A stretch of 61,449 nucleotides of DNA, the filler included, from Catajapyx aquilonaris (taxonomy: Eukaryota): assembly GCA_000934665.2 (NCBI GenBank). It is 3 parts of 3 records of this genome, joined end to end, with 100 filler letters (N's around TTAATTAATTAA, not from the genome) between each part and the next. Parts side by side here need not be neighbours in the genome. Positions count along the whole stretch, not along the records: positions 41,272 to 61,449 come from JYFJ02006318.1; 2 more parts are not named here. One strand, written 5' to 3'. Under the pieces are notes generated by a model. The model ran no database searches. It was not told the DNA's origin and saw nothing but the letters and a program-made list of their open reading frames with translations. Positions 2,679 to 61,449 of the stretch are shown here, piece after piece (position 1 is the first letter of the stretch; the number at the start of each line of letters is the position of its first letter). The position numbers and the translations under genes are program-made.

Positions 2679-2681
<3 letters not shown>

Positions 2682-26437: not shown

Positions 26438-26468
<31 letters not shown>

Positions 26469-30517: not shown

Positions 30518-30655
30518 CTCACCTCTTTTTGTAGGGAGGACGAGTATAGGCTAATTATAATAAATCTCGGGGAGCCCCCTACGGCTGGGCGTGGGAGCAA
30601 TGGCCCGTTAAATATTCCAAATAAGGTAATGAATACTACGAAAGTGTGTGAAACT

Positions 30656-35869: not shown

Positions 35870-36060
35870 CACAGCCTGACGGTTAACGTCTGGGTGTGAA
35901 GCAGTATAGCTGGCTACAGCCTGCCGGTGAACGTCCGGCTGTGAAGCAGTATAGCGCGCTACAGCCTGCCGGTGAACGTCAGGCTGTGAAGCAGTATAGC
36001 TCGCTACAGCCTGCCGGTGAACGTCCGGATGTGAAGCAGTATAGCGTGCTACTGCCTTTC
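35870..36060 (-). repeat. 45-bp coding minisatellite (ARYTASHPDVHRQAV, about 4 copies)
   Basis: Visible in both the DNA and the translation. Confidence 0.9.
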
Positions 36061-37670
36061 GGTGCTGTTCTGGGCGTTTTTGACGATAACGGGCTGAAGC
36101 TGCTTGGAGTTGTTGAGAACGTGAATTCTGTGACGTCTTAGGCCTGCCCCTTCTGTTCTTAAGTGGCCTACCCCTTTTCTTGACACTGTCGTCATTGCTA
36201 ACACTGTTTGTAAGACTAGGTTGACTTGGACAACCATGAGCACCAAGTACTGGTTCAGTAGAGGGATCGTTAAGAGGGACTAAAACATCATAATGACCGG
36301 ATAAACACATTTGGAAAGAGCATCATCGCATCGTTGATTAAATTAACGATGGCTACCAACTAAAATAAACTTATTAGTTACGATTTCAAATTCCATTGAA
36401 CTACTTATTAGCACTCACAACAAAATCAGTGTTTAAAGACTTAAAAACATGATGCACAGCAAATATAAATAAACTCAACCGTTTGCACATTATATTAAAA
36501 GCCTGGAAAAGAAAAAAAAATTACAGAGAGTACTAGCGTATACAATATACATGATATTCAATTGGCATACTATGCATATTAAGACCTCGGGAGAAGGATG
36601 ATCAAGGTCCACTTCAAGTGAAACTGAGATAATTTCGATTTCAAACTTTGAAGCCCCCATAACATTCCATTGTACTCGTACATCCCACGTTCGGGGCCTT
36701 CCATAGTGGACGATGATCATTACTCCACAACCCCGACCAAACTATCATATTCTACACGACAGATAACCCATCCTGATGTGGATCTTGTTAGTTATTTCCC
36801 CGAGGTCTTCAAATGAAGATGACCATTGACTTCGAATTAATAACCGTGTAAGGCAATTTGTGTTGCTAAAAAGCATCACAAGAGCATTATAAGATCATTA
36901 AAAATTGATGCTCCATATAGGAGACTCACCAATGATGCTCATTTAATGTTTTGAAATTTGCAGTGTACGCAAAGAAGTCTGTCAATTATTTCGAGCATGC
37001 AGGCTGACCTCCCGCTGTAACTGGCTCCCTGGTAAATTAATTGCAGGTCTCAGATTTGAGCTTTCCCAGATGGGATGCATCTGTAGAACTCATCCCAACC
37101 TTCTCAGAAGGGCTCATGCCAAAAGTGAAAGCGGTACAGTGTAGTTTTCCAAAAAGTCCCCCTATATTCTCTCCTCCTTTCCGCTTAGGTCTGGTCCTAA
37201 TGATGAATTGAATGAAATTACTCTTAATTTTCTAATTTTAGAGTACAAGTTCTCCAGTCTATAGGTTCGTATGTTTTTTTTGTCATTCATTAAAAAAACA
37301 GCAAGTCGCATGGGGCCCCTAAACTCCTGGGGCCCCCGGGCAACTGCCCATCTAGCCCATACGGTAAGACGGCACTGGAATGCACGGAGCCTTGAGTCAT
37401 CCAAGCACTATGCCTGGATGACTCAAGCCTCCGTGCTGGAATGTGCCATGAATACTCTATTAGCAACAATGTTATTCTTAGTCGACATCATCTGGCCTTC
37501 TGTAAATTGCCTTTGATTTCGCAGGAATGGTGTCATTTGGATTTTGCAATTTATGTTCCGTAGATCAGCTTCGGTGCGTGCGTCCCTGGTCACTCCAAAA
37601 AAAATATTGACATGATGATCGGCCCCGGAGCCAAACCACCAGACGCGGACAAGCAAAGCCAGGATATATA

Positions 37671-41171: not shown

Positions 41172-41271
41172 NNNNNNNNNNNNNNNNNNNNNNNNNNNNN
41201 NNNNNNNNNNNNNNNTTAATTAATTAANNNNNNNNNNNNNNNNNNNNNNNNNNNNNNNNNNNNNNNNNNNN
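41172..41271. other. Assembly gap with TTAATTAATTAA linker
   Basis: 100-base N block. Confidence 0.97.
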
Positions 41272-41437
41272 ATGTCAGCAACCGCGTTAACCAGGTCACT
41301 CTGGAGATCCGTGCGCAATCCATCAATCAAGCCCTTAATTTGATCGTACGACGCCATCACGCCGAGAGAGCCGAGAAAAGCCACCAATGTTTGCGTTCGC
41401 GTTTGACTAAGAGCTCACTATCACACGTCCGGCTCGC

Positions 41438-43290
41438 TCAAAATCTGGCTGCTGTCTGATGGGGAGAATTAGGTGGTTGCTTCAGTCTCACCAGCAACTT
41501 TGCTTTATCTGGCAAATCTTCCACAAGCACATCCACCCAGACTCGCCATTCCTCATCCCAGATCTGAAACCCCAACTGTCCTTCAGATCCACATAGGATG
41601 GGGAAGGTTGCTTGCTGTGCTAGGATTAGTCCAGTTCGATCAGCTTTCACCTCCTTCTTTTCCTCCCCAAAAGTGACATGGTAACGTATGTTTGCTGCTC
41701 AGCTGCAAAACAGAAAAGAAGACATGTATAATGATGTATAGCCTGTAGGCCATGGAAATAAGCAGCCACAATGCATTTACTAACAGGATGTTGCAATCTC
41801 CTGGGCCTATCCAACAATGCCAATACGCGTTCTCACATTACCTATTATATACTACATGCATGCAGGCACCACTGGTTGCCAAGCTAAGGGCATGTAGCTC
41901 ATGGGAAACTGAACAAGGACAGCATAGGTTGTGCCATTAAGATTGTCAAAGTCACATAAGGTCCACCCTGTACTTCAACACAACATGGCACTGTCCACAT
42001 AATTATGTGGTGAACGCTTATGGGAAGGAAATGAATTAAATTTGATGCTGAATGACAAGTTAAACCCAAACTTTTGCCACACAATACATAGGAATGTGAC
42101 ATGTAATCAAACAAGCCCTCAAAGCACTCTGTCACTAAAAATGCTTCACCACCAACTAGCAGTATTTTTAAAAAATTACATTAAATTTGGACACGCCATT
42201 TTCGGCTTCCACTACAATGGCGGCACCACATGTGTACGTTGTCCCCTTAACAGTTACAGATTTCGCTTGGGAGATACTTTTCGTTGTGAGAGTATTAATA
42301 TCGATGGGCAGCAACGTCACACATTCATCTTGCAAATTATTCGAAATAGGTTTGCTTTTCGCAGTTCAAACCGTCTCTGAAAAGTCACAATTGCTCATTT
42401 GTATGTAACATTGATGTAATTGATGGCGCTTGGCTAAAGTTTGACATACATTTTTCATGTTTTTTAATGGAGCCAGGACGGTCTTAAAATAGGAGTGCTT
42501 AGACTAAAATCTCATGGTCCAAATGTGACGGCCCAAATCTCCGCGTGAGGTCTGGATAATGCACGAGAAAGTGAAACTTTGGAGTAAAAGAGTTGGTGCT
42601 GCCTTGGACACGGCTGTATTCCTCCAGAAAAGTACCAATGTGTATCTTCATGTAGGAAATTCCGGTCGGATTTTGCACAGGACTGGTGACAGCATCGTCA
42701 ACATCCCCCCCAAAAAAAGCAGAATTAGCATACTGTCGGAATTTTCGCGCGTAAAGTAGGGCCTCAATATTAGCGGAATCAGCCGTAGCAGGCACCACAT
42801 CTGGCTAAATGATTCCTTCACTCTTACTTTCCCTTTGTCGTAGTGTACAAGAGATGGTTTATTCCCGGAGTCAGTAGGCCCGTACCTAAATTTTTGAATG
42901 GTATGATTTCTGAAATCCAGCGTGCAAACTTTGGACTTCGAGATTTGTCAGGATGTTGCTTATCAGCCGGGGTCCTACCCCTTCAAACAGGTCGTGGGCA
43001 ATATCTGGTGCACAACTGGTCACAATATGGAAACCTGCGACGTAATTCAGAGGGCACTGGGTTTTTACACCGCAATGTGCAATTAAAGTCTTGTCACCCG
43101 CAATTAATTTCACTTGGCTATCGTGTCCTCGTATCGTTCGCAGGGTGAAGTCGTCCGATGTAAAGACGGACCCAAAGTTGCTTCTCTTTGTTGTGCAAAA
43201 TCTGCAACAACTTTGTGATTTCAATGATTCTAAGAACCCTCCCAAGGAATGTGCACCTAGATTGTCAACCAGACTATGGGGTTGGTTGAA
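41438..43290 (-). mobile_element. Decayed EnSpm/CACTA (CMC) transposase plus start of its second gene
   Basis: DNLGAHSLGGF..CRFC, PDIAHDLFEGV and TPKFHFLVHYP..RFGP motifs; 41438-41700 resembles the accessory ORF (FQIWDEEW..DLPDK). Confidence 0.8.
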
Positions 43291-43377
43291 CCAGGGTGCA
43301 AAAACATTAAATTCACATGAGTAGGCCCTTTTTTCCGGCTGCTCTTAATAAGAGGCTACATCTTCACATGTCCAGGC

Positions 43378-44215
43378 CTACATGGAGTCATCAGAGTCGC
43401 AGTTGTGGCACACGCACCACGGTGTGCCCTCCGTACATAACTCATGAGCACATATCTTACAGTCATTGCACTGGACCCACTTTTCACGGGAGGTGCTGTT
43501 TCTGTAGACGTGGTGACACAACCAAACAAAATGTTTCTTCCTCCTCTGACATTGAGTCATCGTCACTTTCACTCTGACTGGTGAGTGGACTTCTGTTGGG
43601 TCGCCTTCGATGCAGTACCAAGGCGCAAATCTTTCTTGCAATTTCCCTTCACCATTTTATTCTTCCATGGCGGCCTTTTCTGGCATGTCCGTCAGAATCG
43701 CAGATTTCCTCTTTTTGCGTCCACGCCCAGAATCTATCCTAGGACCGGCCTTAGGAAAGGGTCTTACCACTTCCGGGGAAAATTTTCCAGCCTGCACCTC
43801 AGCTTCCTCGGATGAGAGGCCTGCTGATGACGGCCCTGGTTGGTTGTTAGGTGCTGATGCTTCACCTGATTCTGCAAGTTTAAATCAATATTAGCCTAGG
43901 CCTGCAGTTAGGTTTTTTTTAATAGGCTTATTTGGGGCTATTAGCAGTCGACCACCTTATTCGGCAATGTTCATCATATCTATTCCTAAATGAGACCCAT
44001 GGTTATCAAGGAGCAAGAGAACAGAGCGCTCTTTTGAGGGGATGAAGGGGACCAGGAATATTGCTGCAAAGTTGTCCTTCATCCAGCCGGACTGGTTCGC
44101 AGCTCCGATCCATCCTGGTGGGACATCTCTAATAAAATGGTCGTCAAATTTCATTCTGGGGAAGATCAACATAGGCGGGACAAAGTTTCCCAGTGCATTC
44201 ACGGCTACGCAGAAG
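43378..44215 (-). mobile_element. pogo/Tigger-like DDE transposase fragments with C-terminal PHD-like finger
   Basis: AVNALGNFVPPMLIF, SGWM, LLLLDNHGSH; WVQCNDCKICAHELC..CHNC. Confidence 0.85.
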
Positions 44216-44554
44216 TAATCAATGTCCCTCGTTCGAATATGTGCACTATGAAGATGAAGCACTAACCAGCCAAGATTCTTGTAATTTCGCTGATCAATAA
44301 GTCTGATTAAAAATGGGATCAGACCTTACCATCGTTACTCCAAATCTACATCATAATTATAGGGGCAGACATCTTGCCCCTCCTGGCCCTCATTGGCTGG
44401 TTGCAGATCGATGGTTTTGACTTGACATCCCTTGGCATAGGTGTGCGGATTGACTGTTATGACCTGTCTCGGACCCCAATGCAGATAGGTGTGGGGTGCA
44501 GTCACTTACGTGTTGAAATTATAATATGAAAACCCGCGAAAATGCAGATAGACG

Positions 44555-45005
44555 GTTTTGACTTTTCACGGAAGATTTCCTCTGGGGTCAGCAAGTGGCC
44601 ATCATCAGTCTTCTGCAGGGAGTCACGCAATGCTAGACGTTTTATTGTTCCTCCCACACCATCGCAGGGGCCTTTCCCATGCGATGTGACGAAGAAGTGC
44701 CACTCAGCTTCTTAAGTAATTGCAGTCAGACTTATGCAGGCAAAGATTCCTAAAGTTTTTCATATTCTTGTACTGGGATGCGGCACCATCCGAAAAGTAG
44801 AATACCTTTCGTAGTTTTGTGGTAACTGCTCTTTAACCAGTATCAATACTTGTTGGAAATAGTAAACTGCAGCTGCTTTGTGGTGCTTGATGTCAATGAT
44901 ACCGGCAAAACATTTTGCCATCAGCCGTCCATCTTGTCTGTAATACGGTACAAACGGATGAATTGTCGCTTGACCTTTTTTCCAATGGAAGGCTTGCACC
45001 TCCAT
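44555..45005 (-). mobile_element. Sola2-like transposase fragment
   Basis: EVQAFHW..ATIHP, YFSDGAASQYKN and WHFFVTSHGKGPCDGVGGTIKR across frameshifts. Confidence 0.75.
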
Positions 45006-45636
45006 GAGTCCGCCCCGGTGCGCCTCAGACACTAACAGTAATGTGCTTCCCTGCAGCCGGGAGGTGTGTCTCAATGGTCTGACCTGCCCAAAAGGCAACG
45101 CACATGCTAATGGTGCCGGAGGAGGGGAAATTATGGCAAGATTGTCACTGAAGTATCCATAATGATAGTTGATATAAAGCTCACCTGTTCAGCCGCACTC
45201 TCACTCCTGTATATCCCGTGTACAGCAGTATATGTCTGCCCCCGAGTCCGCCCCGGTGCGCCTCGGACACTAACAGTAATGTTCTTCCCTGCACCCGGTG
45301 GCCATCTTGTCCAAATGGACACGTCAGCACCAGCACCAGGGCTGCATCAGCCTCTGACGTCAGCATCTCTTCAAGGCCTTTTTTAGAGGTTACCCTTCTC
45401 GGTTATAGGTTACCACAGAAGCTAAATTTCCATCATGTAACCTCTAAATAATTGTAACGTAAAAATGCGCCATCTTGTAACCTCTACAAAGGTATACTGT
45501 AACTTTAACACTAATGTAACTTCTATTAAAGCGCAAAAGTGCTAGGTCATGTAACCTCTGGAACACAGTAACCTTTATACACATGGAACGAGTTCGTCAG
45601 TAACCTCTAAAAACCGATGTAGAGGTTACATGACTA

Positions 45637-45826
45637 TAAGAGTGTAGAGGTGGGTTTCTGTGCTTCAATCTCATCCTGCTGCATTGCTGTCATTGCCGAT
45701 TTCCATTTCCTTGTGTGGAGCTGTTGTTTGATTAAGAGGTGTCTTTTTTCCGATGGGCTAACTGTAGTCTTCTGCACTTGAAGAATATCGCAGGTGCTGC
45801 AAGTGTCCATTCTTGGTCTTCGGAAG
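45637..45826 (-). mobile_element. Duplicated Sola1 transposase fragment (copy of 49272-49461)
   Basis: FRRPRMDTCSTCD; near-identical DNA. Confidence 0.85.
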
Positions 45827-46015
45827 CTTCCGAAGACCAAGAGTGGACACTCTTAATCAGGAAACCTCTAAATGGAGGTTTAAAAACTGGCAGTTTTTAA
45901 ACCTCCACTTTGGAGGTTTCCTATAGAAACGTGCACTCTAAGTCATGAAACCTCTAAATGCCTCTAAATAGAGGTTTAAAAAGTGCATGTTTTTAAACCT
46001 CAACTTTAGAAGGTA

Positions 46016-46227
46016 CACCCGCGAGCATAAAGATGGAGACGGCAGGTCCTCACCTTCGGCAGGCTGCTCTGCCAATCTCAGCTATTACGGTATCAAATAT
46101 ACTCTCATAAATACACGATCACACGCCTGATGCAGCTAACTCGGTTCCAAAAGAGTTCATTAATTTGAGTCGGATAAAGAAAGGTCAAAAAAAGGGCCTG
46201 CCGTCTCCATCCTTTTGCTCGCGGGGA
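46016..46227. mobile_element. TA-flanked Tc1-type MITE
   Basis: TIR CCCGCGAGCATAAAGATGGAGACGGCAGG / CCTGCCGTCTCCATCCTTTTGCTCGCGGG. Confidence 0.8.
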
Positions 46228-46367
46228 TACATGAAACCTATAAAATACAAGGTACCTTGTAGCCTCTCATCTAGAGGCTTTTTTAAAGGTGCATTTTAGA
46301 GGCTACGTTCAGAATTAAGGTTACAAACCAATGAAATGAATTACCACAGATTAATGCATACACATTA

Positions 46368-46721
46368 CTACTAAATTCACGGTGGAAGACCGGATAGGCT
46401 TCACCCCCTACCACTGGTCATGGCCAGCTCTGCTGCCAAATGTGGAAGGTTCGATGGTTTATGGCAGGGGACTGCTTTATTTACCTCTTCTACCCCAATA
46501 AACCCTATTGTACCTCTCCCGACATCCATCCCTCCCCTTGAGGCGATTGCCACTCTTGGCAACTCAGCAGGAGTGTGCCAAGCCGGGAAAAACGGTTAAG
46601 CTCTACTCCAATGGTATTTCTCCATAAGCTTTCCCTAATACTACAAAAATGTCGAACGTATTTCCAAACGTGATTTTGCAGTGGGCAGGGCCTATCCGGT
46701 CTTCCACCGTGAATTTAGTAG
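46368..46721. mobile_element. TA-flanked MITE
   Basis: Perfect TIR of about 32 bp, CTACTAAATTCACGGTGGAAGACCGGATAGGC. Confidence 0.88.
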
Positions 46722-48628
46722 TAGCATGTTTTTATTTCTGACATGACTGGAGGTCTGAATATACTGAAATACTTGATATACTTGAATCCAACTCCAGAGC
46801 CCAAATGATGACCAATGCCCATATATGCACCAACCATTCTGGTGGTGGCCTGCTTGCTGTTAGTGGCCTGTTGTGACAATAGTTGTTAGTGTTAACCATT
46901 GTCAAAACAGGCCACTAATTCCAAATGGGCTGCCAGAAGGGTTGGTGCATATGGGCAACAATGAAGCAATTGATGTGTCATCATTTTGGCAGCTTCTTTT
47001 TCCTTTGTCTCCACTCTAAGTCATCATCATTTTGGCAGCTTCTTTTTCCTTTGTCTCGTATACTTGAATCCTACTCCAGAGCCCAAATGATGACCAATGC
47101 CCATATCCGGGAACGGTACAGAAGGGCCCATGATCGGTACCGGACGCTCCCGCCTCCGAAACTCCGACCTTTCATCCTGCCGCCCTGTCAAAAAGGCCGG
47201 CAAGGTTGGAGCTTCTTCTCGCTCCCTGCTCACTACACTGGCAGTTCCCGCCCTCTGTGGAGAGGTCCAAGAACTTTGCCGAACCCCGTCACCACCAGGT
47301 GGCAGCGCCTGCCTTTGGTCACGTGGTTCGTTACGCTCCCTCCAACCGCCAACAGATGGCGTAGGGGCCCAGTCATCCCCAAAGGAAGGGAGCTGGGGAG
47401 GGGCGCTGCCCAAAAAGGGCAACAGCGGCGTGCTGATCATCACGTCACTGGCCCTGGGCGGGGCCAGGTCCACCAATGAATAATCCACCTTTACCTCCGC
47501 TGGCGAAGGGGGGGGGGGGGGGGGGGGGGAGAGACCTTGGTGGAGGTAGTCAAGCGGGCCATCACGTCCGCCACCGCCTTTTCCACCTCAATTTCGCCGG
47601 CCTCTAACGACAAGCCTAGCCCCAGTCGCACCCGCTGGGAAGCGGAGAGCGACCCCATGGCGTCTTGATGGCGGCCATCTTTGACCCCATCTGGATGCTC
47701 CATTCCTCTTAGGATTACTTCGGCACGGAGGGCCAAATAAAACCCGTACCCCTTCCACTAAGCATCCCAAGATGCACTCCTTGCACCGGCAATCCCAAAA
47801 GAGGACCCGGTACGCCCGAACTATTCAGCTAGGGCTGCTGAGCCTCGCTAATTAAGCGAGACAAAGGCGGGAGTGGGTGTACGCCCACGATCTAAAAAGA
47901 TCGGCCAAACGCTGGAGCGCCACTTCTACGACAATGGTTACCTTCTACCTTCCAATTACAAGGCCAGTCACCATTAAAACACATTTTATTTCGGTTTGGA
48001 TGAGTACACTCACGGAAAACGCCTCCAACACTAACTGGGGAGCTCCACGGCTCCGCATCCGCTTCACTCGCCGGCTCAGGCTGCTCTCTCCTTTTTTTTT
48101 GGTCTTTTTCTCCCTCCTCCCTCCCCGGGAACACCCCCAGGGTTGCCAGGTGTCCCAGGGATGGAGGCGGCCACTTCAAAAACAAGTCGTAGCAGGTGGT
48201 GGCGGATTCAATCCAGACGGCAATGTTGCTTCCAAGGTAGATTATGTTGATCCTATGTAGGTGTGGTCGGTGCTGTCATGCTGGGGGAGCAGGCTTTAAC
48301 CAGCATTTACTGCTTAAAAAAAGGCTCAATTTTATGCCTCGAACATGGGGTCATCTGCAGCAGGGTATTGTGACTGTATACCCAGAGCAGTGTACAGTCA
48401 TGTGCAAAAAAACATGCAAAATTGTGTACCGCACTGAATTGTACACACTGACTTTACCATGTGTAACAAGGATCCCTTCCAGGAATGATTTTGCTCTGAT
48501 AATATTTAGTGCAAATTGCTCCTAAGATGAAAGTGACAGCAATAACTGGGATGCCCAATAACTGTTGGGCTCATAATTCCCCGTAAAATTAAGTCAAGGT
48601 AATGGGCAAAACTTGGCACAAAACTCAC

Positions 48629-49193
48629 CCGGGAGTCCGACCTCACGGGCCACTTCAGCCCAAAGTACTTGTGTGATGTTCCTGTCGCGGTGGTCCTTCA
48701 TCGTCTTATCCCAGATTGCCGCCCTGTCTTGCACCGCGATGATCAGGGCTTCCTTCGAGGCCACCGTACTCTTCCGCGCCTCCGCCTTCGCCTTCCTCTG
48801 ACTCATTTTGTACAGTAAGTTCCCGACACCAGCAAGGCAGCAACTCCAACTCAGTGGACTCACACAGAAAGATGGCTGCTGCCTGACCGGCACAGGTGAC
48901 AGGTCTCCCCGGCCTCCCCCACCCCCAGCTCCCACCCTCCCAGTCCCCCATTGGCCGCACACGGTCACGTGGTCTCCAAGCAGTTATTCGCTTTGTAAAA
49001 TAAGCGCCCAAAATTCGCTTCTATCTGTCTCTGGCAGGCCAGCGCGATTTTGTGTTTAGACGCGCGAGTAACCAAAATTCGCTCGCGTCTTGCGGAAATT
49101 CGCCGATACGTGAATTGCTTTTGTCGACGCGAATTCGCGGAAGGCTGTTTTTCGCTCGCTTTTGACGCTTTTTCGCGTATATGTGAATCCAGC
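48629..49193 (-). mobile_element. Harbinger-like 5' end with MADF-domain exon (ATG 48806, donor 48628)
   Basis: LIIAVQDRAAIWDKTMKDHRDRNITQVLWAEVA is a MADF pattern; terminus TAA-GCTGGATTCACA at 49193. Confidence 0.7.
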
Positions 49194-50331
49194 TTACCTT
49201 CATGTGCGAGAGCCCTGCCCCACTGAAACCGGCAAAATCACATTTGGAGGCTACATTGGAGGTTTCCTGACTAAGAGTGTAGAGGTGGGTTTCTGTGCTT
49301 CAATCTCATCCTGCTGCATTGCTGGCATTGCCGATTTCCATTTCCTTGTGTGGAGCTGTTGTTTGATTAAGAGGTGTCTTTTTTCCGATGGGCTAACTGT
49401 AATCTTCTGCACTTGAAGAATATCGCAGGTGCGGCAAGTGTCCACTCTTGGTCTTCGGAAGGACTGGTTTGGGAAATCTTTACGGAACACTGCTGTAAAA
49501 CTTGTAGCTCACATTGGCGTCAGGATGTAGCTTTTTGAAGCACATGAACATCATGTGCATATTCAGATCCGGGCTGAGATAATTATGTCCTGCTTGTGTT
49601 CCGCCTGCCATAGTGTGATTCCTCAGTCGGGAAGGTTGATATGTGCGTTTTCACTTTCTCACGATTCTCATTGGAACTAGGCTTTGTGGCCTGCTTCCGT
49701 CCATCATAATATTTATTATTGCCCGCCGCCTTCTTGGATGCAAGAACTTTCACCCTCTTCTCCGACAACCCAAAAATGTTGCGAAATGTTCCGCAGCAAA
49801 CTTGCTTGATTTCACCACTTCCAGATGGAACAGTGTAAGTCACAGTACACTGCCTTCTACTCTCCTTTGGATTGTCATACGTCCCATGTCGCCTACGTCT
49901 CAAGGAGTTACGTGCATCAGACCCAGCATGTACGTGCCCTGTTCTTCATGACTCGTCATGGAATAGAACTCCTTGAACAGCTTCGCTTTTTCTTCACCAC
50001 TAATACACGGCAGTGAAACTGGCATTTACATAATGCCTGGAAACGGATACGAAATGCAACTCACTTGTGCCTACGAAATATCAGGTGGCTATCATGCCGC
50101 AGTAGACAATGATAAATCAAAATCAGTATGCCTACCGTTGCGTGTGGCGGGGGTCTTGGAGGCACAATTGCACCGCATCGTGATGTATACTCTGCCCCCG
50201 CTACTCTAGCTCTCTTTGCCACTGACTGTGCAGAACCAGTGCCACGAGCTCGCCGCTTTTTGGAACCACCAGTTTCGAGACGCCATGTTGAACAGCTGAT
50301 GCACTGAAGGCACTTGGGACCTTTGCATGTA

Positions 50332-51849
50332 CGAGGGTGAATCAATGAATTCTGAGCCTCGCATAGAAAGACTTTTTTTATAATCACCAATTTCGTGAGA
50401 CTTTACAACATAGTCCCCCTGAACACTAATGCACTTCTGCCATCTGTGCTCCAACTTCTGGATTCCATGTAAAAAAATATCTTTCCCTACCCCACCCAAC
50501 CACTCATGCATAGCACTGATCACTTCATCATCACCAGAAAAATGAGTCCCACGCAGGCTCTCTTTGAGTTTTGGAAAGAGGTGGTAGTCGGAGGGGGCCA
50601 AATCTGGGGAATAGGGGGGATGGGGGAGAAGTTCAAACCCACAATAGTGAGCAGCCACCTGTGCAATCCGTGAGGTGTGGGCTGGAGCTTTGTCTTGGTG
50701 GAGCAGCCCCCCTTGGGTCAGTTTTCCGGGCCTCTTCTCCTTGATGGTCTCGCGCAGCTGGTGTAAAAGGTTGGCGTAGTAGTCTCCTGTGATAGTGCGC
50801 CCATGTTGCAGAATGTCCACCAACAGAACCCCGTCACAGTCCCAAAAAATCGACGCCATCACCTTCCCCACCGATGGAACGACATGAAACATTCGTGGGG
50901 GTGGAGATCCATGATGCCGCCACTCCTTACTCTGCATTTTGGTTTCTGGGCAATAATGATGAAGCTGTCACCGTTAGCCACGCTATGGCGACGATACCAG
51001 TGCGTGTCCCACAAGGGGCCCACAACACCCGGAAAGAATAAGATTTGGGAACTGTTTCTGGACGGACTTAAATTTATTGGCAACCTCTCTCTCCAAGTAC
51101 AGGGCTACGTCTCCTCTCTTATCAGTACCTCAGTCCCTATATATGGCATAGGTGGGGGCGCCACCATCACAGGTTACACAGTCACAGGTTACAAAGCCAT
51201 GCTTCGTCTTGAGTCACAGCGACCCAAGAAAGCGGCAGTGTCCCGTCGATACACCTCCAATGACTCTTCAGATGTGATCACACCAGTCCTCTTCTGATCT
51301 GGTGTCAAGCGGCGAGGTACCCAACGCGCCGAAAGCTTGTGCATTTCCAAGGTTTTCGTCAGGATTTATTGGACACTGCCAAAAGAGATGCCCACCGCCG
51401 TGGCTATCATTGCTGGATGGTGATTCGCCTGTCAGCCATCACCATGTCATGGATTCTGTCCACGATTTCCTCGGTGACCGAAGTTGACGGACCGCCTGGG
51501 CGGGGGTCATCTTGCAAACTCTCCCAACCCATCTTGAATTCTCGTGCCCACCTTTTGACTGTAGCATATGACGGAGCATCGTCATCTCCTACTTGTAACG
51601 TCTCTTCGTGGATGTCCTTGGGGCACAACCCTTTTTTGTGGAGGTGTCTCATCACTGCAGGTGCCTGGCGTTTGTCCATTATCAGGACAGGCCCACACGT
51701 TCACACATACAAGGTTCAAGTACTCTTGGTGGAATCAGAATGAAACTTGGTGATATAGGTTCCAATGAGTGCCACTACAAGTTGGTAGAAGCATGTCATT
51801 GTAGGTCAACTCCATCTATATCAGGCTCAGAATTCATTGTTCACCCTCG
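50332..51849 (-). mobile_element. Full-length but inactivated mariner element
   Basis: TIR CGAGGGTGAA(T)CAATGAATTCTGAGCCT flanked by TA; WVPRRL, TQDEAW, HQDKAPAH and HPPYSPDLAPSDY motifs; stops and a frameshift. Confidence 0.95.
50966..51193 (-). mobile_element. Solo LTR (228 bp) inserted in the mariner transposase
   Basis: TGT...ACA ends, 4-bp TSD AAGC, minus-strand TATATA then AATAAA; removing it restores DEAWL-HHYCPETK. Confidence 0.8.
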
Positions 51850-52679
51850 TAAAAAGGCCCTGCACGTAGGCAACCACCTCATCTACTGGCCAAATGTGAA
51901 ACCTTACTGATTTTTCTGGCACTTGGCCAACATTGGCGATGGCACATAGGATACCTCGACACTCATAACACAAAACCGGATTTTTGGGCACTTAGGACCT
52001 TTGCATTGTCTCCCCTTCAATTAACCAAAAATGAATTTATTAGAAAGCAAAACGTGTTTACAATAAAAGCTTGATGACAAGCTTGATGAGTTTTTCTATG
52101 TTTCTCTCTGAGGCAGTAGCAAACTCCTTCAATATGTTTGATTGACTTTTTCTCATTCTCCTTCTGGGTGTGCCTGCAAAAATAGGAAGCAATTTTTTTA
52201 AATATTTAGGAATCCTTCATAATATGCTTTTAAAGCTGCATTTAAATGCTAGCGATTTTATCGGTGATGTTGCAGCGACGAGCCCAATTTTTGGGGTGAA
52301 AACACTTTTTGTTACCACAATCGTTACTTTCACTTGGTGATGACATCGCTGATCAAATCGCTCACATGTTCACATGCTTACAGGAGCATGTGAAGTTGCT
52401 TAGCATCACAGTTTAACATACCAGCCATGCTCATTTTTTCCTTATACAGTGCTGGACATTAATTCCGTTGTACAGTATTGGTCATATATTGAGGCAACCG
52501 CCAGCGACATTTTCCAAAGCGGCAGAAGAAGGAATCTTGCTCGCCCATGCTTGAAGTATGCTTATCTCCCCCTCCATGTGGCTGTTGTCCTCGTGTAGAG
52601 TTACTTCCGCTGAAACATGGTGTAATAAAGGCGATTGTTATACGTCATGCTAAAGTTGAAGAGTAATAGTTGTGACCCA

Positions 52680-53102
52680 CCTGTAATTACTCTTCCCGCC
52701 AGGATCTCGTCCCGCTGTAACAAGACCTCTGGGGTCAGGTCACTGACGTCCAGTACATCCCCAGGATTTTCCGCAGGGCGGTCACCAATAATCGAGTCCA
52801 CCCGACTGTAATACTCCCAGTCCACCCGATGATGGCCGGACTGGCTATTCTTGGTCTTGACTTCGGCGATACTTGATAGTGAGCCTCCTCATCTTCTCTT
52901 TACATTGAGGACCGGTGACCACCACGTTGAACCGGTCCTTCATCGCCTGGCTCATCCTCTCAAAAACTACCTTGTTGTGGGCAGCCTTCCGGAGCTTCTC
53001 CTGCGCCTCGCCCCAGACCACCAGCAGGCCTCTGGTGGCCTGGTCGGTCCACTGAAATACCTTTTTGCCAACAATACACACGCTTTCGTTGGAAGACGCC
53101 AT
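52680..53102 (-). pseudogene. Myb/SANT-like (trihelix) DNA-binding gene of Harbinger type, frameshifted
   Basis: WTDQATRGLLVVW..NKVVFERMS..TGPQCKEKMRRLTIKYR, then SG..WEYYSRVDSIIGDRP in another frame. Confidence 0.8.
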
Positions 53103-53818
53103 GTATGATGCCTTGCTCCAGGAAACAAGCGTCTGGAGACAGCACCCGTACCCCGCCAGCGCCACCGGAGAATTAGCGGCTGACTGTTGAACTTCTGTAT
53201 ACCCCTGATACAGTACCTAGAATACAGTGCATCCCAATATTTTTCGTTGGCGACCCCAAATAATCGCTTCGCTAAATTGGCGACCCTCCTCATGCGCCCA
53301 TCGCAACCCACAGTTTGGGAATTACTGGTCTAGATCCTTATACGTATTTCACAGATATATTTACATAATACCTGAAGAATATGATTGTCAGAAGTGGAAG
53401 AATAATTTTTGTTGCTGTCATGGAGACGAACTCAAGGAATTAGGAATGGGCAGAGGTGGGTAAATGAGAAATATTCATCTACTAATTTTCCATACAAATA
53501 TTTATTTCCAGTTTATATCGACACCATAATATATCAATAAGCATATGAAACACACCGGAAAAAAACCTTCAAAAAGCAGAATGCTAGTCATGAGGAAATG
53601 GAGTTGTAGGAAATATTGCAAATATTGCACTTGTGTTTTTACCGAATTTACTGTGAATTTAGTATGAATTTACTGTGAATTTACTCAATTTTTTACTGTC
53701 AATTTACTGTGAATTTACTGGCTGAATTTATTAGTCAATTCAGCCCAAAATAACTATCACCATCAGTATACATGATCCAAGTTATTTTGAGCCGAATTGA
53801 CCACAAAAACGGTTTTCC

Positions 53819-54290
53819 CTAACAATACTTCTTCCAACTCCATTTCCTCATGACTGTCTGGTTTCTTGCATTTTTTTTTTGGTTTCCCTTTTTTTTAACC
53901 GAAAAAAACCTCTCTTGTTTTTCTAAATTGGCATTAGCGCCTGCCACGTCCTTCTTCTTAAATTCAAAAACCGGTGTCTTGCCCACTTTGAGCAGCTTTC
54001 TTGCTGCCTGGGCATGATCAATGACACCTTGCGCAATCGACTCATCTGGTTCAGGATAATTCCTAGTATCTTCTAGTAACCCTTTCACTACTTCACACAT
54101 TTTTCTTTTCACTGACTCCCTAGAATTACCCATTTCGCCAGACACTTTCCTATTTGGCACAATTTCTTTATGGAATTGTCTCTCTTCTTCCAATGTGTCA
54201 TCTATTGTATTGCCAATAATGCTTGGGACAGCCTCCTGATGCTTAGTAACACATGTAGCACAAAGCAGCAGACTGAAAGCAGAAGTACGA
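53819..54290 (-). mobile_element. Probable MULE/SWIM transposase C-terminal fragment
   Basis: ANANLEKQERFFSVKKK resembles the tail of arthropod MULE-SWIM proteins; no catalytic motif seen. Confidence 0.4.
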
Positions 54291-55051
54291 AAGTCTGCCG
54301 CTAATTCTCCGGTGGCGCTGGCGGGGTACGGGTGCTGTCTCCAGACGCTTGTTCCAGGAACAGGAAGGCAAGGGAACCAGAGCCCAGAGGGCAGCACTGA
54401 GGGAGGAGTGACGTCATGATCCTGACTAAGCTGGCTGCCACAGTCACCTTCGTAAACGCGTTCGGGTGGAGGAAGGACATGTGGGAACACCCCAATCGCG
54501 TTTTTCGGGTGTAGGGATCATGATCCCTGTGGCACATGGGAATGACCCTAATGAGTTCGAAATGCAAAAATTGGTTTAGCTGATCGTAATTGCGCAGGAG
54601 GATTGCCCTCTTTAGCCTTTTTTCCAGCAGGAACAATATTTCGTCGCTGTCAATCCAATACCTCGTATCTACGAAGAACCCAACTTTACAGGAGAAGGAA
54701 ATAACTATTTCTTAAAGTACTGGCACACAACAGAAAATCCCTAATTTTTTCCCCAGCCTTACAGCTCTTAAGAATTACACTTCCTTGACTGAAATTCAAA
54801 TTCCTAACAATGTGACATTGTTGGTGCACTTACGAGGTTTTGCAATATGAAAGACATTACAACACTTCGAAGATGAGAGGTTTTGTCAGAACGGGTTTTA
54901 GAAAAGGAAATACTTTGGGGAGTAATATTGATCATTTTTTTTATTTCAATCTGAATAATATTGACATGAATGCCCGGCAATCATGAAATGCCATTAGCCT
55001 ATAGGCTAATATCGATTCTAAGTATTTCTGGCATGATTGCACGGGTACGGA

Positions 55052-57583
55052 TCACTGCAGCCTACATGGCGCAAATTGTTGTAGAAATGATGGTAATCCT
55101 TTGGAAGGACAGACGAGCTGCTGCAAGTGGGTGTACTTATCCAGTGATATGGCTACAGGACCATCATACAGCTTTTTGATTGTACAGTGTGAAGCATCCT
55201 GCCTACGTTGTGGCATAGTTTCCCAGTGGTCGGAGAATGCTAGTTTGTACTTGATAGTACCATCATGACTGTAATTCAATCCCCTTAAATCCGTGACAAC
55301 TGGATCCCCTGATCGACGACCCGGACGGATGGATGAATAGTACTTTAAATCACTGTAGTCCTCAAAGAACGACCACTCTAAGTACCTGACGTTGTAAGGC
55401 TGAGGTTTGGCACGTGCCACGGAACAGGCATCGACATACATAGCCGGAGTGTATATAGGCTTATTACGATACTGCCTCTCAATGGTGCTGTGCATACTAT
55501 CACATTCCATTTGCGTATGGCCCTTGACAAGGTACTTCTGAGTGATAGTAACTGAATGAGTGATGGCAGTGTGCAGCAAAGCATTAGCCAGAGTAGTATG
55601 GCGATTATGGTAGTTACAACCATCACTGTAGAAAATCACTGAATCCCCAGCTGTTGTATGTTCCTTAATAAAGTTGCACATAATTGTGCTGAACTCATTT
55701 CCTGTTATGTGTCCATCTCCCTCATGCCATAGATAGCAATATCCACGTCCTGCTTTCAAATCATATATAGTGAAGTTATGAACGCATAATTTCATTTTAT
55801 AATACAAAGCAGAGGCATTTAACTTGGGAGAAAGCAGAACAGACTGCATGTCCACCGTATACAAATGGCTGACATTTTCATCATCTTTGTCTCTGGCTTT
55901 TTCTGCTCTTGCCTCCTCCTTCATGTTTATGTGAGTTTCATATTCCTTGTCACCAGTGTTTCCAGTCTCATGGCCAACACAAATGTCGCACTGATCTTTT
56001 CTGCATAAAAAGGTACAGGATTAAAAGTATCACAGTTACATAATTATTATCAGTCACAGGTAATCATGCATAATACAGTGCTTCTTACTTCGGTCTGTAC
56101 AAAGCCAGATTCATTTTCTTGAATATGTCCAGAAAGTGGCCCCAGCAGAATGGGCGCACGTTTTGATTCCTTGCATTTGCACAGTATTCCCTGTGCAATG
56201 CCGAAATTGACTGTCACATGGGTTCGAGGTACAGTTTTTTGGACGATTCCCTGCAGTAATGAGATTCCATCTTTGGAATGTCCTGAAGATAGGACTGCAG
56301 ATGCTTTTGGCGGTGTTCATCCTCCCTTGGTCCAGAATTATGGCGATGATCCACGTTGTCATCTTTGGCTGTTCCTTTGGTCATACCTAAGGCCCATGCT
56401 CGAACACTCCATTCCTTCAAGCCATAAGTTGAACAGAAGAAATCCTTGCAAACCTTAACCATACCAACACGTTCCTTCTGCATGTGGTACAGTAGTGTAT
56501 TAGCTCTTCGTGAAGAATCCTTGGTTTCTATTGAAAAAGGAGCCATGTGCTAAAGTAAAGACATAATGACACGCACTTGTGTAATCACTTGACTTACCAC
56601 CACCTGTCCGTCTCTTGACATCCTTGCCATGTACTAAGGCGGCTACTTTTACACGTCTCTGTTCCCATGTTAGGTTTTGCCAGAAATGTCGGAATTCTGC
56701 TTCTCGATAGGATTGCGTAAATTGGTTGCAGCAAAACTTCATTTTATTGCTAGTCTCTGTGGCATGTTTGCAAGGTGGCCCCATCACCCTAGCGCTACGT
56801 GGTTCAGACAGTTCCAACTTCCCATCTCTCTTCTTGTAGCCACAATATTCTTTCCCTTCCATACGCAACTTCTTTTGTCGTATCTTGTCTCCAGGCGATG
56901 CAGTAGTTTTCCTGCGTTTGCCAGTAATGGTTGGGGAGGCACATTCCTTTCTGGTCTCATGCTGCTCATCGTCTGATTCGCTCTCTGACGTTTCAGATGG
57001 TACATAAGAGGATTCTGAGTCACTTAAATCCACTCTCTCCTCTCTCCTTCCTTCTCTCATCCTCCCTTCCTTCTCTCATCCTCCCTTCCTTCTCTCATCC
57101 TCTCTTCCTTCTCTCCTCCACTCTCTCTTAGATCCACAACTCTCTGGAAAGTAATTCGTGCAACAAGATTACTTGTGACAGTACTACAAACTGTAACATT
57201 ACAGCTTGTACCAGAGGGTGCTTCTGTGTCTCCCTTTGTTTCTGTATCATCTGGAGGGACGGTTTTCTGTCCGTCTGTAATGCATAACAGCAAGTAAAGC
57301 AACAATTTTTAAATGTGAATCTGAGGCGTGCAAGCGAACTTTAAAATGTACCTTCACCAGTTGTGGATTCAGAATCTGTGTCCCCTGGTGGATATCTCAC
57401 ATTGATTTGTGAAACGGCCAGAACTGGTGGAGCTGTTTCATGGAAAAGCATTATGTTATAAAATAATATAAACAGCAGACAACGTCAAATTATACGAAAA
57501 TTCCCATCATAAGTGAGTCTACCTTCCTGTCGTGTAGCAATCAAGGCCTTGGCCATTGTCACCAGCATCTTGCCTCGAGACAT
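55052..57583 (-). mobile_element. Intron-containing Sola1 transposase pseudogene
   Basis: MSRGKMLV start; KVCKDFFCSTYGL, IPKMESHYCR, KKDQCDIC, TVDMQSVL, YSDGC, YLVKGHTQMECDSMHSTIE; introns 56528-56597 and 56001-56088; premature stop at 56214 and a 3' frameshift. Confidence 0.88.
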
Positions 57584-58112
57584 TCTTTGACCTACACAGG
57601 CAGTTTATGCCAAGACATGAACATTATTAGAGCCAATACTTACTCCTTAACTATGCCACTGTTGAAAACCATGCGTTGCAAAACCTCTTACATGATGATG
57701 TTCAAAGGCATATGTTACGGCAAAACCTCGTATAATGAATCAGCACATTTCGTTACAGCATGCTTTCGGTGCTATTGTCACATGTGACAAAGTTTCACCA
57801 TCACGAACCAACGGGGGAACTATGTCCCACTTTGGTGCCAGTCACTGTGGCACTAATTACGCCTTAGGTGTAGGGTATTAGACTGACAAAGAGGAAAGAT
57901 ACTCACCGAAGCCCACTTGGGAAGTGGCCATCTTGGATTGCTGCACATACGAGGTCTTGCTGCTAATATTTCCCGAATGTTGGAGGTGAGGTTTTGTCAT
58001 ACACCTAGATGGCGCGCTTTGGGTTCTCTAGGGAATATGAGGTTTTGCCAACAGATGGGGCTTGTATTGACTACTACAAAACCATGGAAAACTGGAAATC
58101 GGCCAAAGTGCG

Positions 58113-58342
58113 AGATACGAGGTATTGGATTGACAGCGACGATTTGTTTCCTTGGTGTACTGTTTCCTGCATGAAACATGAACTGCGAGAGAGTCTGATC
58201 TCTTAAATATAACATTCTTACCATCTCTCCTCCTCACGCTAGCCTTTACAATGGCTTCCAACCCTCTCTGCACAGTCACAATATCGGTTCCATCGTTGAG
58301 CGGCTTATCACAGAGTGTACAATTCGCGTCCGGCATTTTCAT
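58113..58342 (-). mobile_element. N-terminal fragment of an Academ-like transposase
   Basis: CTLC..GLEAIVKASVRRRDG..VHVSCRKQYT pattern; truncated. Confidence 0.45.
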
Positions 58343-59169
58343 TCATGAAACCTAGTCCATATTATAGAGGTCAGTGGGTGTACTAGGCTTCGAAAGTCTG
58401 AAATGCGAAGATTTTGGATCACTTGAAAACTATGGTCAATCGCTCTAGCGGCCAAACGAAAAAAGCTAGCGAGCTGGTTCTAGTCTCTTCTTTTAGGAAA
58501 TTCCATCAGCTTTCATCTTGATAGAAAGTGATTTTTCTCTAGGATGCATCGTTTCGGAGTTATAAGCGGAAAACTAAAACAACTTACGAAATTTTATGGT
58601 TTTTCGCAATTTTTATGGTGAAGTCATATCCGAATGTAGTCGATAGCTGGATTTTCAGATTGAGCATCCCAAAAAATCCGTCGAGAATAATTCTTCAGCG
58701 ATTTTTTCCTGAATCCTTTATCCATTTTGCTCTGCTTGGCTCTGCTGCGTGCTCTGAAAGATGTGAATCGGCGAATGGTAAATGGGAATGACAATAGTTG
58801 AAAATTAAACCTTGTATATTTTTCCGTTGTGTATTTGAAACAAACATGTAGTGTTTTACTGCCCTTACAAAATATTATCGAAACCCAAATAATAGTTTTT
58901 TTAGTACGGTATTGTCAAACATGTGCAGTCGTCTTCATTCTTTTCTCAAGCCTTTTCCTCTCTCTCTCTCTCCCTCTCTTACCGCAACAATTCATTTCTT
59001 TCCTTCACCCAAGCAAAATTCTTATAAGAGTGAGAATATATACAAGTTTGTCACATATATGGTCGGCATGCTCGGGGTGAATATCAATCCATTTAAGGTA
59101 ATCCTTCCCCTGCCCCCTAATCACATCCTGCACATTGCGGATGAAGTGATTGCCAAGGAAATAGGTGGG

Positions 59170-60040
59170 TTATATCTCTTTGTCAATCCCTTCAGACAAA
59201 TCTTCAACACATTTCATAAGGTCCTCAGATGGGTAGGTTAACCCTGTTGCAACGTTGTCATATTGTTTGTAAAAAAAACATGTCGCTCCCAGAGGCACTG
59301 CATCTGATGTAAGTAATCCCCTGTATCCTTCACAGTCACCACTTGCTGAGGTTGGTTTTATTACACGCTTGGATAAATACCCAGAGACATAAGCAAGGCC
59401 TTGCTCATGGTATTTGCAGTCGCTGAAGTCTGAAATTTTATCAGCTTCACCTTGGGTGCTGGATGGAGTGGAGGTGGATGATTGGCCATGTGCTGCAACA
59501 GTAGAAATCCTGACACCTTCCATGTCATTGGTAGACGCTCATAGTGCTCAGGAGATTGTCAAAGTCGGTTTCACAATAATAATTCTTTGTTGATGTGGAT
59601 CGTAGATTCTGCACCATTATTTTCTTTGCAATGTAGGAGAATTCTCTTGGGCTTGGCCTATCTCTGCAGCCTTCCTCACTCCTCCAAAAGCATTCTCTAA
59701 ACAATCTTGGTTTAGCCGTCCCATTAGCAGGAACGGCAGGCCCTCATCCTGCAAGTGCAGCCACAACTGTTCTGCTGCGGAGAGTGTCACCAGCCAACCA
59801 GTTTGACTGGGACACTTGATGGCATTTCCATTCATTTTTAGAAAGGTCCCATTTCTGACACTTTCTTTGCACTCCCGCCACATTTGCAAGTGTCGAGATG
59901 TCGATGTCACAGCACCGCACAGGTCCCTCGTTGGATGCCTCATTACCCGACTGTTGACACTGTCAAACATTTTGTCGACAGTGCCAACAAAGTCAGCAGA
60001 GTGCTGGGCTGCTACAGGCAGGATACTCCCAGTTTCAGAT
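59170..60040 (-). mobile_element. P-element/THAP9-type transposase C-terminal fragment
   Basis: ADFVGTVDKMFDSVNS, GWLVTL, RLNQDCLENAFGGVR, LAYVSGYL, GLTYPS. Confidence 0.88.
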
Positions 60041-61355
60041 AAGCAGCATAGTGGGGTCATTTTCATTTTTTTTGCGCAAATCCCGATATTTGTTTGTGAA
60101 ATATGAAACCTAAACGTCATAGTTTTCACTTATGATATGGTTTAAATGGAAGTTTAATTGATATTACAGATTTAACAGTGGATAGTGGCTTCCTTTGTCA
60201 CTTCTGTTACCATCGTGTGGATGTTTTTTTTAAAATCACTATGTATGTAATCTTGAAGTTGTAATGCTCCCACACAGCGGAGAGAACCACTCTCGTGGGA
60301 GTATTATTTTTTATTTACAGGAAACATGAAATTCGGCTCAATTGTTGTGGATAGGAATGGCTGGTAACGAGAATTATTAAAATTTCACAAGGTTTCATTT
60401 ACGAGTCACAGTTATGAAGCTCATGCACATAGATGTAATATTTTTAAATATGTAAGGCATCTGGGAGGCTTTCACTTACTATACTTTAATTAACAGTACC
60501 TCATACCACTCTCATGCTATGGTAAAGACTCACCTGGGTAACAGATGTGACACTCATTTCAAGAAATGATAATAGCAATAATTATGATGAATCATACCAA
60601 AGAACATTATTCACATTTTCTATACCTGACATGGTACCTTTCAGAGTTGGAATGCACGAGGGCACATTCTTTGACACAGAGTCTACTTCATTCTCAGTAA
60701 CGTAAAACAATTTCACATTAGTGGCATTCTTCAAATGATCATAAAATGCTTTAGCATTAGATATATCTTTTTCATGGCTACTTGTGCATCAGATGTGCGC
60801 TTCAGACACCCCCCTACCCCATCGGCCCCCTTCCCAAGTACTGCCTCAAAAAACGACCACGTTCCTTTTTGAAATCCCTCTCCCAAAAGCAATTCCTCTT
60901 ACTATGAGAACTGAATTACAGCAGGCACTTGAGACAATTTCTTTGGAGCTTCATAATTATTACTGGTGTGTGTTCTCAAGTATTCACATGCATTCCTGAT
61001 GTGAGCTTAACTGACCTTCTTGATTGAAAATTGTTGGTTTTGCAAATGGCAGCAATATATTCCTCAGTGTGCCTGAAAATTGGGCATTATTATAATGTAC
61101 AGCACAAAACCTCACATTCTAGGACGCTTGCCCTCAAATGGGGTTTAAAAAATAATTTTTTTAAAAAAAACCTCACGTTCTTGTGCACTTGAATGGATGA
61201 CCCATGGTGTTGCAGTAGGGCACTGCACTCAGCTGCACTCCAGCGATTCATCACACCTGTAAGATATATTAATAATAGCGACTATCAATGCCACACTACA
61301 TCCAGAAAGTGCCACAAGGTATGTGGCAGAAAAATGGGCAGTTGTGATAGTCCTA

Positions 61356-61449
61356 ACAACAACAACAACAACAACAACAACATCACGACATTTCCCTATG
61401 AGGGGTAGTCAGCGATGAAGGGAGATGCAAGCTAACCCAACATATGAAC
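61356..61449 (-). mobile_element. 3' tail of a LINE/SINE with (TTG)n, same family as 6517-6594
   Basis: Shared CACGACATTTCCCTATGAGGGGTAGTCAGCGATGAAGGGAGA. Confidence 0.6.

Follow-up and report, generated by a model that had tools for sequence, protein, structure and literature searches.

Eleven loci with similarity to transposases or transposon proteins occupy positions 41272–61449 of a Catajapyx aquilonaris window (the whole stretch of DNA analysed, 61,449 nucleotides), and all 11 are on the minus strand. Four things are observed: the shared orientation, the range of families represented, the coexistence of complete with truncated copies, and a strand skew running the length of the region. 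Judged from these features of sequence, the piece may be part of a larger piRNA source locus of the uni-strand type. This is the single most likely explanation, ahead of three rivals, with a probability that stays short of even.

Structure of the window and loci of the array

The window is composed of three separate pieces of about 20 kb, because its N blocks (20892–20991 and 41172–41271) are identical artificial linkers of the form N44-TTAATTAATTAA-N44. The piece with the array is 20,178 bp in length; a linker precedes it, and it runs to the end of the window. Since both ends are cut by artificial joins, no neighbouring gene or promoter can be assigned to it. The zinc-finger ORF and the PP2C gene lie on another piece and were rejected as sources of a promoter or of readthrough into the array. 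The upstream mariner and Helitron, cited in the original prediction as further minus-strand elements, are on piece 2, the relative orientation of which is arbitrary, and lend no support.

Table 1. Features of the array piece and the preceding linker (positions along the window)
Feature	Position	Strand	Remarks
Artificial linker	41172..41271	none	Joins piece 2 to piece 3; array begins at next base
EnSpm/CACTA-like (Plavaka / Transposase_21-like) coding remnant with stops	41900..43344	-	Lower border approximate
pogo/Tigger-type DDE_1 fragment	43960..44325	-	Pfam E 6.1e-5, 23.1 bits vs cut-off 22
Unnamed DDE-type transposon protein family, fragment	44388..45083	-	In-frame stop and frameshift
205-bp piece	45622..45826	-	96% identical to 49259-49461, sharp borders
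MADF domain fragment	48612..48746	-	E 7.5e-7, profile 1-47 of 84
DUF7869-type transposase, N-terminal part, ends before DDE domain	49259..49987	-	tblastn 49398-49987, best E 4.3e-7
mariner	50343..51839	-	Coding 50209-51700, nearly full length, with frameshifts
Myb_DNA-bind_4 (Myb/SANT-like) fragment	52848..53054	-	E 3.2e-10
MITE-like unit	53124..54353	undefined	74-nt inverted arms, 95% complementary; without coding similarity
DUF7869-type DNA transposon, 3.5 kb	54641..58142	-	Coding 55055-57075, three ORFs (broken twice)
P-element/THAP9-like transposase, C-terminal part, in-frame stops	59173..60129	-	PDB 6p5a_A, E 3.3e-3
Second small fragment, unnamed DDE-type family of 44388-45083	60761..60868	-	6 tblastn matches, best E 2.2e-5

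Within the EnSpm/CACTA-like remnant, only the ORF 42889–43344 was compared. Its ESM-Atlas score is 0.98, with 195 of 256 features in common, which is a lead only; of the matching Atlas clusters, Plavaka (PF18759) is present in 11% of members and, at rank 23, Transposase_21 (PF02992) in 43%. No Pfam match was obtained for the remnant. The pogo/Tigger-type fragment scores above the DDE_1 cut-off, over profile positions 10–93 of 177 only. For the unnamed DDE-type fragment at 44388–45083, 95 homologous proteins were found at E <= 1e-3 (best 6.8e-31; Pfam domain in none), together with 125 tblastn matches. In the original prediction this locus is labelled Sola2, and the locus 49259–49987 is labelled Sola1. 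A 25-nt palindromic junction is located at 45802–45851, at the border of the 205-bp piece, and short foldback repeats continue to about 46006.

The MADF fragment may be of transposon or host origin. DDE_Tnp_4 gave no match on either strand (Pfam, six frames), leaving PIF/Harbinger membership without its domain; the name Harbinger, initially given to the MADF and Myb pieces, is unproven, as no such domain accompanies them. The ORF 53822–54517 (232 aa, minus) was rejected as a transposase remnant (0 homologues among 1.84 billion representatives; Atlas 0.75, unrecognised). The tentative P/THAP9-like assignment is based on 129 residues, query positions 42–170 being aligned to positions 430–553 of the 6p5a chain; the Pfam match to TNP-like_RNaseH_C is very weak (E 0.17).

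Two loci look like whole elements. One contains Transposase_1 (E 2.4e-21), HTH_48 (E 2.2e-4) and DDE_3 (E 1.1e-4) domains and is flanked by diverged inverted arms of 45 nt (50343–50387 and 51795–51839, 73% complementary); by its sequence characters (Transposase_1 DDE, Mos1-type HTH and terminal inverted repeats) it is a mariner. The other, the 3.5-kb DUF7869-type element, has perfect 30-nt inverted arms (54641–54670 and 58113–58142), a Pfam DUF7869 domain, a tblastn match at 55060–56886 and at least 500 homologues (best E 1.3e-100, 52% identity). Its right arm is straddled by a minus-strand ORF (58031–58342), for which neither a word-sharing homologue of similar length nor a Pfam match was found. 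Most loci are truncated or broken; the earlier description of most pieces as internal slices does not extend to the mariner and the DUF7869 element.

Orientation and base composition

Pfam profiles searched in all six frames, with translation continued across stops (E <= 0.01), gave 6 hits at 5 loci on the minus strand and 0 on the plus strand; tblastn of 215 transposon proteins against the window gave 4 minus-strand loci and 0 on the plus strand. The many plus-strand coding fragments that would speak against a one-way array are thus absent from both searches, each covering both strands. Among 20 of the longer plus-strand ORFs, nothing credible was found in Pfam at E <= 1. ORFs of at least 110 aa number 18 on the minus strand versus 10 on the plus strand; at a length of at least 70 aa they are balanced (49 minus, 47 plus). 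Transposon copies are overwhelmingly one-way (minus 11/11), as is expected of a uni-strand piRNA cluster. The initial count of 11 minus-strand coding fragments out of 11 is upheld as the orientation of 11 loci of similarity. Among the family labels attached to it, Sola1, Sola2, Academ and Harbinger are provisional; the matches obtained are to DUF7869 proteins and to an unnamed family.

Reverse transcriptase, integrase, gag, env and MULE domains were not found on either strand (Pfam, six frames, E <= 0.01), so the minus-strand MULE-like piece, solo LTR and tail of a LINE reported earlier stay putative. The enrichment in Gypsy/ERV elements that is the hallmark of flam-type clusters is likewise absent from the piece (Pfam, six frames, both strands). 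Scanning the window for Rfam families and tRNAs gave no hits, hence no SINE-like or small-RNA gene is available for orientation.

The plus strand of the array piece is pyrimidine-rich throughout, un-annotated parts included. GC skew and AT skew are negative in 30 of 40 windows of 500 bp; in the other two pieces the corresponding counts are 20 and 19 of 41, and 21 and 25 of 40. GC skew is negative in all 10 un-annotated blocks longer than 150 bp, and therefore the one-way property seems to reach beyond the named loci. Coding DNA of minus sense gives such a skew, its sense strand being purine-rich. The region-wide skew is consistent with minus-strand transposon sense and is no sign of plus-strand transcription. 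As a calibration, the sense strand of the PP2C gene on piece 1 is G-rich in 2 of 3 introns, a sample too small for use. AATAAA occurs 6 times on the plus strand (expected 9.5) and 16 times on the minus strand (expected 8.3). ATTAAA is distributed in the opposite way (plus 10, minus 4), and the two signals summed are balanced (plus 16 vs minus 20).

Candidate piRNA source locus and its alternatives

A uni-strand piRNA cluster is defined by a long transcript of the strand opposite to the transposons and by abundant, uniquely mapping small RNAs (23–32 nt) of one strand with 1U bias. For transcription, small RNA and selection at the array the following account is inferential. Cut-and-paste DNA transposons of at least six protein families would have inserted time and again, nested in one another and suffered deletions, to form a graveyard, the recognisable copies of which all finally lie in one orientation. 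A long plus-strand precursor, initiated at a promoter or by gene readthrough outside the piece, would be cut into piRNAs antisense to transposase messages. Antisense insertions would be retained, since silencing guides come only from them. Most of the copies are old and interrupted by stops, so that an active element matched by their piRNAs may be lacking, which speaks against a piRNA source; so does the visible extent of only 20 kb. The piece is cut at both ends, and such clusters extend over tens to hundreds of kb.

Ordinary transposon-rich DNA, with an orientation shared by chance and picked out afterwards, is an unlikely explanation, if the most serious of the rivals. The probability of a shared strand (two-sided, 2 x 0.5^n) is 0.001 for 11/11, which reproduces the value first proposed and stands against chance. 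It rises to about 0.008 for the 8 loci with E <= 1e-4 (8/8 minus), which tempers that value, and to 0.06 for the 5 loci of the symmetric Pfam scan alone (5/5). All three values are post hoc, the piece having been singled out from hundreds in this genome (316 windows, each with room for about three 20-kb pieces), and about one such run would be expected over these windows if a fair share of the pieces is transposon-dense. The 205-bp copy and the locus 49259–49987 may, in addition, not be independent. Randomly oriented remnants would not be expected to give the skew found in 30 of 40 windows and in the 10 un-annotated blocks.

Another, improbable explanation is that the loci are not independent insertions: part of the array would go back to few events (one element capturing DNA or copying it as filler, or a local duplication) and would have inherited its orientation. 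The segments 45622–45826 and 49259–49461, 96% identical, share identical sharp borders and a palindromic junction, and resemble the product of repair or filler copying, not of two transpositions. Four different families are placed within 4 kb (41.9–45.9 kb) with very short gaps, and the two unnamed-DDE pieces and three DUF7869-type pieces amount to two families only. Against this, self-comparison revealed no further duplicated DNA within the piece, and at least two loci, the mariner and the 3.5-kb DUF7869 element, are clearly separate insertion events because each has its own inverted arms. To our knowledge, no single element carries transposases of six superfamilies.

Rather unlikely, too, is that a plus-strand host gene surrounds the piece, which would then be situated in a long intron or non-coding transcription unit. 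Sense copies would be purged by selection on account of the splice and poly(A) signals that they carry, and no piRNA function would be involved. In favour are the scarcity of AATAAA on the plus strand, which would agree with such purging, and the fact that 20 kb of a large intron needs no exon. Against it, ATTAAA shows no depletion on the plus strand, and the piece showed no host exon on that strand. Antisense bias of transposons within genes is described as established for mammals and is attributed to selection against transcription-terminating sense copies (PMC3517506, PMC3088655). If so maintained, the array would be similar to this intronic bias in being one-sided relative to a transcription unit and kept by selection against sense copies; the bias described in these sources does not take the form of an all-or-none DNA-transposon array, and no host gene is visible here. 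A count of 11/11 is far beyond the strength of such a bias, and DNA transposons were omitted from the analysis in PMC3088655.

Comparison with known clusters and significance

In published unistrand clusters most transposon fragments are reported to run opposite to cluster transcription, and such clusters have been found de novo by strand bias of repeat annotation alone and later confirmed by small-RNA data (PMC10643416). Similar to the array, flamenco and flam-like clusters of Drosophila contain many transposon families, largely as fragments, in one orientation (PMC10643416). Flam-like clusters are given as 227–1,085 kb in size and enriched in Gypsy/ERV LTR elements, their strand bias being due to Gypsy elements only (PMC10643416). 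The array is distinguished from them by the 20 kb visible, by having no retroelement domain on either strand, by the assignment of every named piece to cut-and-paste DNA transposons, and by being known from its sequence alone.

Mosquito core piRNA clusters, arthropod loci in which antisense inserts act as traps, resemble the array and are described as supplied by readthrough from upstream genes (10.1101/2022.08.22.504762). Such readthrough would fit an array piece without a promoter of its own. Unlike the array, these clusters are defined by small RNA and chromatin and are enriched in endogenous viral elements (10.1101/2022.08.22.504762).

That the array represents a uni-strand cluster of a non-dipteran arthropod, stocked almost wholly with cut-and-paste DNA transposons, is a tentative proposal, somewhat doubtful at present. 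A literature search limited to titles, and thus no proof of absence, found none that describes DNA transposons as the material of a unistrand cluster.

If the orientation is due to chance or to an intron effect, the piece is ordinary repeat DNA, and the case warns that a genome-wide control is required before a one-way run in a 20-kb sample is given weight. If the piece is a piRNA source, it would be a one-strand cluster predicted from sequence beyond Drosophila and mosquitoes, aimed at DNA transposons and not at retroviruses. It would help to test whether, in arthropods that have received little study, clusters can be found by orientation bias alone. The trapping of antisense copies by one-strand clusters would then not be special to Gypsy/ERV control in fly follicle cells and would be a general arthropod device, tracking the transposon classes active in each genome.

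Window composition and features of pieces 1 and 2

The window consists of three separate pieces of 20,891, 20,180 and 20,178 bases. Both N runs have the form N44-TTAATTAATTAA-N44, with stops in all six frames of the TTAATTAATTAA spacer; the window is therefore not continuous. The pieces are unrelated and artificially joined, so claims spanning them are unsafe. The array under study is exactly piece 3. The upstream mariner and Helitron, originally added as further minus-strand support, are real elements, yet they sit on piece 2, which makes the direction in which they point arbitrary with respect to piece 3. The PP2C gene and the zinc-finger ORF are ruled out as flank or promoter of the array, both being on piece 1.

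The PP2C gene has at least four exons; its 332-aa exon matches PP2C only at residues 228–324, after a long N-terminal stretch without domain match. The zinc-finger ORF is a 168-bp tandem duplication of a two-finger unit (copies 87% identical). A satellite reaches the end of piece 1. The two inverted copies of a 378-bp repeat are 97% identical and represent a repeat family of this genome that is young and non-coding. The Helitron is nearly intact, its Rep/helicase ORF preceded by a 422-aa (DUF6570) and a 398-aa ORF, the latter containing a 45-bp tandem repeat; a 500-bp palindrome adjoins its 3' side. In all three pieces CpG observed/expected is 0.55–0.68 and TpG+CpA is in excess (1.18–1.25), a base composition that suggests germline DNA methylation in the genome.

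Features of the three pieces (window positions)
Feature	Position	Strand	Detail
378-bp repeat	2650–3022; 26089–26466		pieces 1 and 2
PP2C phosphatase gene	4459–13290	minus	exons 4936–5355, 7284–8279 (332 aa), 11045–11413; first exon near 13200–13290
C2H2 zinc-finger ORF	15635–16144	plus	170 aa
Satellite	20172–20891		125-bp unit, 5.8 copies, 96% identical
N runs	20892–20991; 41172–41271
Mariner-type HTH	23363–23806		weak; piece 2
Helitron	30024–36322	minus	piece 2
Palindrome	30024–30517
Helitron Rep/helicase ORF	30659–33946		1096 aa; PIF1 E 1.5e-24, Helitron_like_N E 1.8e-19
45-bp tandem repeat	35867–36064
Piece 3	41272–61449
ORF with Atlas match	42889–43344	minus
DDE_1 (pogo)	43972–44181	minus	Pfam six-frame scan
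Unnamed family, read-through	44502–45020	minus
Unnamed family, tblastn	44388–45083; 55421–55693 (weak); 60761–60868 (new)	minus
205-bp copy	45622–45826	minus	96% identical to 49259–49461
Palindromic junction and foldback cluster	45802–46006
MADF	48612–48746	minus	Pfam six-frame scan
DUF7869 group, tblastn	49398–49987; 55060–56886	minus
Mariner Transposase_1 + DDE_3	near 50539–50949	minus	Pfam six-frame scan
Mariner inverted arms	50343–50387 / 51795–51839		45 nt, diverged
Myb_DNA-bind_4	52848–53054	minus	Pfam six-frame scan
MITE-like unit	53124–54353		1.2 kb, 74-nt arms
Third-longest ORF	53822–54517
DUF7869 element arms	54641–54670 / 58113–58142		30 nt, perfect
322-aa ORF	55055–56020	minus
DUF7869	55421–55594	minus	Pfam six-frame scan
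104-aa ORF	58031–58342	minus

Transposon loci of piece 3

Eleven loci with similarity to transposon proteins, of at least six families, are present on piece 3, all on the minus strand (11/11). A Pfam scan of six frames translated through stops (stops as X; E ≤ 0.01) yields six matches at five minus-strand loci and zero on the plus strand. As a single ORF the pogo piece reaches 23.1 bits (curated cut-off 22; E 6.1e-5), and a single-ORF scan adds a Mos1-type HTH to the mariner. Relatives of the 322-aa ORF number at least 500 and come from insects, fish and molluscs; among the matches listed the best has E 1.3e-100 and 52% identity, and many carry DUF7869. A distribution this patchy is to be expected of a transposon protein. 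Searched against the window by tblastn, 120 of these relatives match at two places only; the two pieces originally called Sola1 and the large 55–57 kb element thus form one DUF7869-type group. The unnamed read-through has 95 relatives (best E 6.8e-31), none with a Pfam domain; these served as its tblastn queries. The minus-strand P-like piece has a match (E 3.3e-3) to 6p5a, a structure of the P transposase of Drosophila.

Several labels of the original prediction fail. Reverse transcriptase, integrase, gag, env and MULE domains are absent from both strands of piece 3 in the six-frame scan, so the solo LTR, LINE tail and MULE-like piece stay assertions; its end carries a plus-strand (CAA)9 run but lacks LINE coding similarity. 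Because no DDE_Tnp_4 partner accompanies the MADF or the Myb piece, their Harbinger label is unproven; both could be host-derived. ORF 42889–43344 matches ESM Atlas clusters (0.98) with minority Plavaka or Transposase_21 members, a lead towards EnSpm/CACTA and not proof. The third-longest ORF is unrecognised by Atlas and has zero relatives among 1.84 billion representative proteins.

The pieces had been described as mostly internal slices. The mariner, however, is almost complete in length, and the DUF7869 element is a 3.5-kb unit; both have inverted arms, while the other named pieces are partial. Despite perfect arms, the coding region of the latter is broken twice, into three ORFs. Its arm match stops exactly, not one base further on either side. 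The 104-aa ORF (Met start, Cys-rich N-terminus; no homologue found by search) spans the right arm and could represent the leading part of an older gene that the insertion interrupted. A MITE-like unit is also present.

Strand bias and its explanations

The two-sided chance of one orientation (2 × 0.5^n) is 0.001 for all 11 loci, as originally calculated. It rises to 0.008 for the eight loci with E ≤ 1e-4 (pogo, the unnamed family twice, MADF, DUF7869 N-terminal piece, mariner, Myb, DUF7869 element) and to 0.06 for the five of the strictly symmetric Pfam scan, all values being post hoc. Because 316 windows of the genome were examined, each with up to three such pieces, a single chance run among transposon-dense pieces is possible. 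Ordinary repeat DNA sharing an orientation by chance is a rather unlikely explanation. Base skew, measured independently of naming any transposon, speaks against pure chance. On the plus strand of piece 3, GC skew and AT skew are each negative in 30 of 40 500-bp windows (piece 1, 20 and 19 of 41; piece 2, 21 and 25 of 40). GC skew is negative in 10 of 10 unannotated blocks >150 bp, and is −0.082 in unannotated DNA overall vs −0.041 in the annotated part. Sense strands of coding DNA are usually purine-rich, as is the minus strand here; much of the unrecognised DNA is therefore probably also minus-sense transposon remains. ORFs of at least 110 aa number 18 on the minus and 10 on the plus strand; shorter ORFs are balanced. 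The original observation thus holds in part: the array does run one way, and somewhat more strongly than its named elements by themselves indicate.

Orientation shared through common origin of non-independent pieces is improbable. The 205-bp copy, with sharp borders and a palindromic junction, resembles repair or filler copying, and four families are packed within 4 kb (41.9–45.9 kb); yet self-comparison gives no other duplication in piece 3, and two elements (mariner, DUF7869) have inverted arms of their own. Next to the copy, the palindromic junction together with a cluster of short foldback repeats looks like a hairpin-repair scar or small foldback element. Antisense elements would also result if piece 3 lay within an intron or a long non-coding unit belonging to a plus-strand gene and sense copies were selected against. 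This is unlikely: in the portions of the literature drawn on, antisense bias inside mammalian introns is a modest excess, not all-or-none, and a plus-strand exon is not visible in the six-frame Pfam scan of piece 3.

Likeness to uni-strand piRNA clusters

Piece 3 is tentatively regarded as a putative uni-strand piRNA cluster, the most likely of the readings although somewhat short of probable. In this reading, plus-strand transcription would begin outside the piece, and the resulting RNA would be processed into guides antisense to transposase messages. Base skew is no pointer to such transcription. On piece 3 AATAAA is rarer on the plus strand (6 vs 16 minus), ATTAAA is not (10 vs 4).

The one-way layout is like that of Drosophila flam-like loci. 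In the sections of PMC10643416 used here, most transposon fragments of flam and flam-like loci lie opposite to cluster transcription, and flam-like loci were found de novo through repeat-annotation strand bias and then confirmed by small RNA. Mosquito core clusters, in the part of 10.1101/2022.08.22.504762 used, contain antisense inserts transcribed via readthrough from upstream genes. The strand bias of fly flam-like loci is driven by Gypsy elements only (PMC10643416, same sections), whereas Gypsy enrichment, the flam-type hallmark, is absent from piece 3. If a cluster, piece 3 differs from flam in its stock of transposons, and would be a new member, with unusual content, of a known kind of locus.
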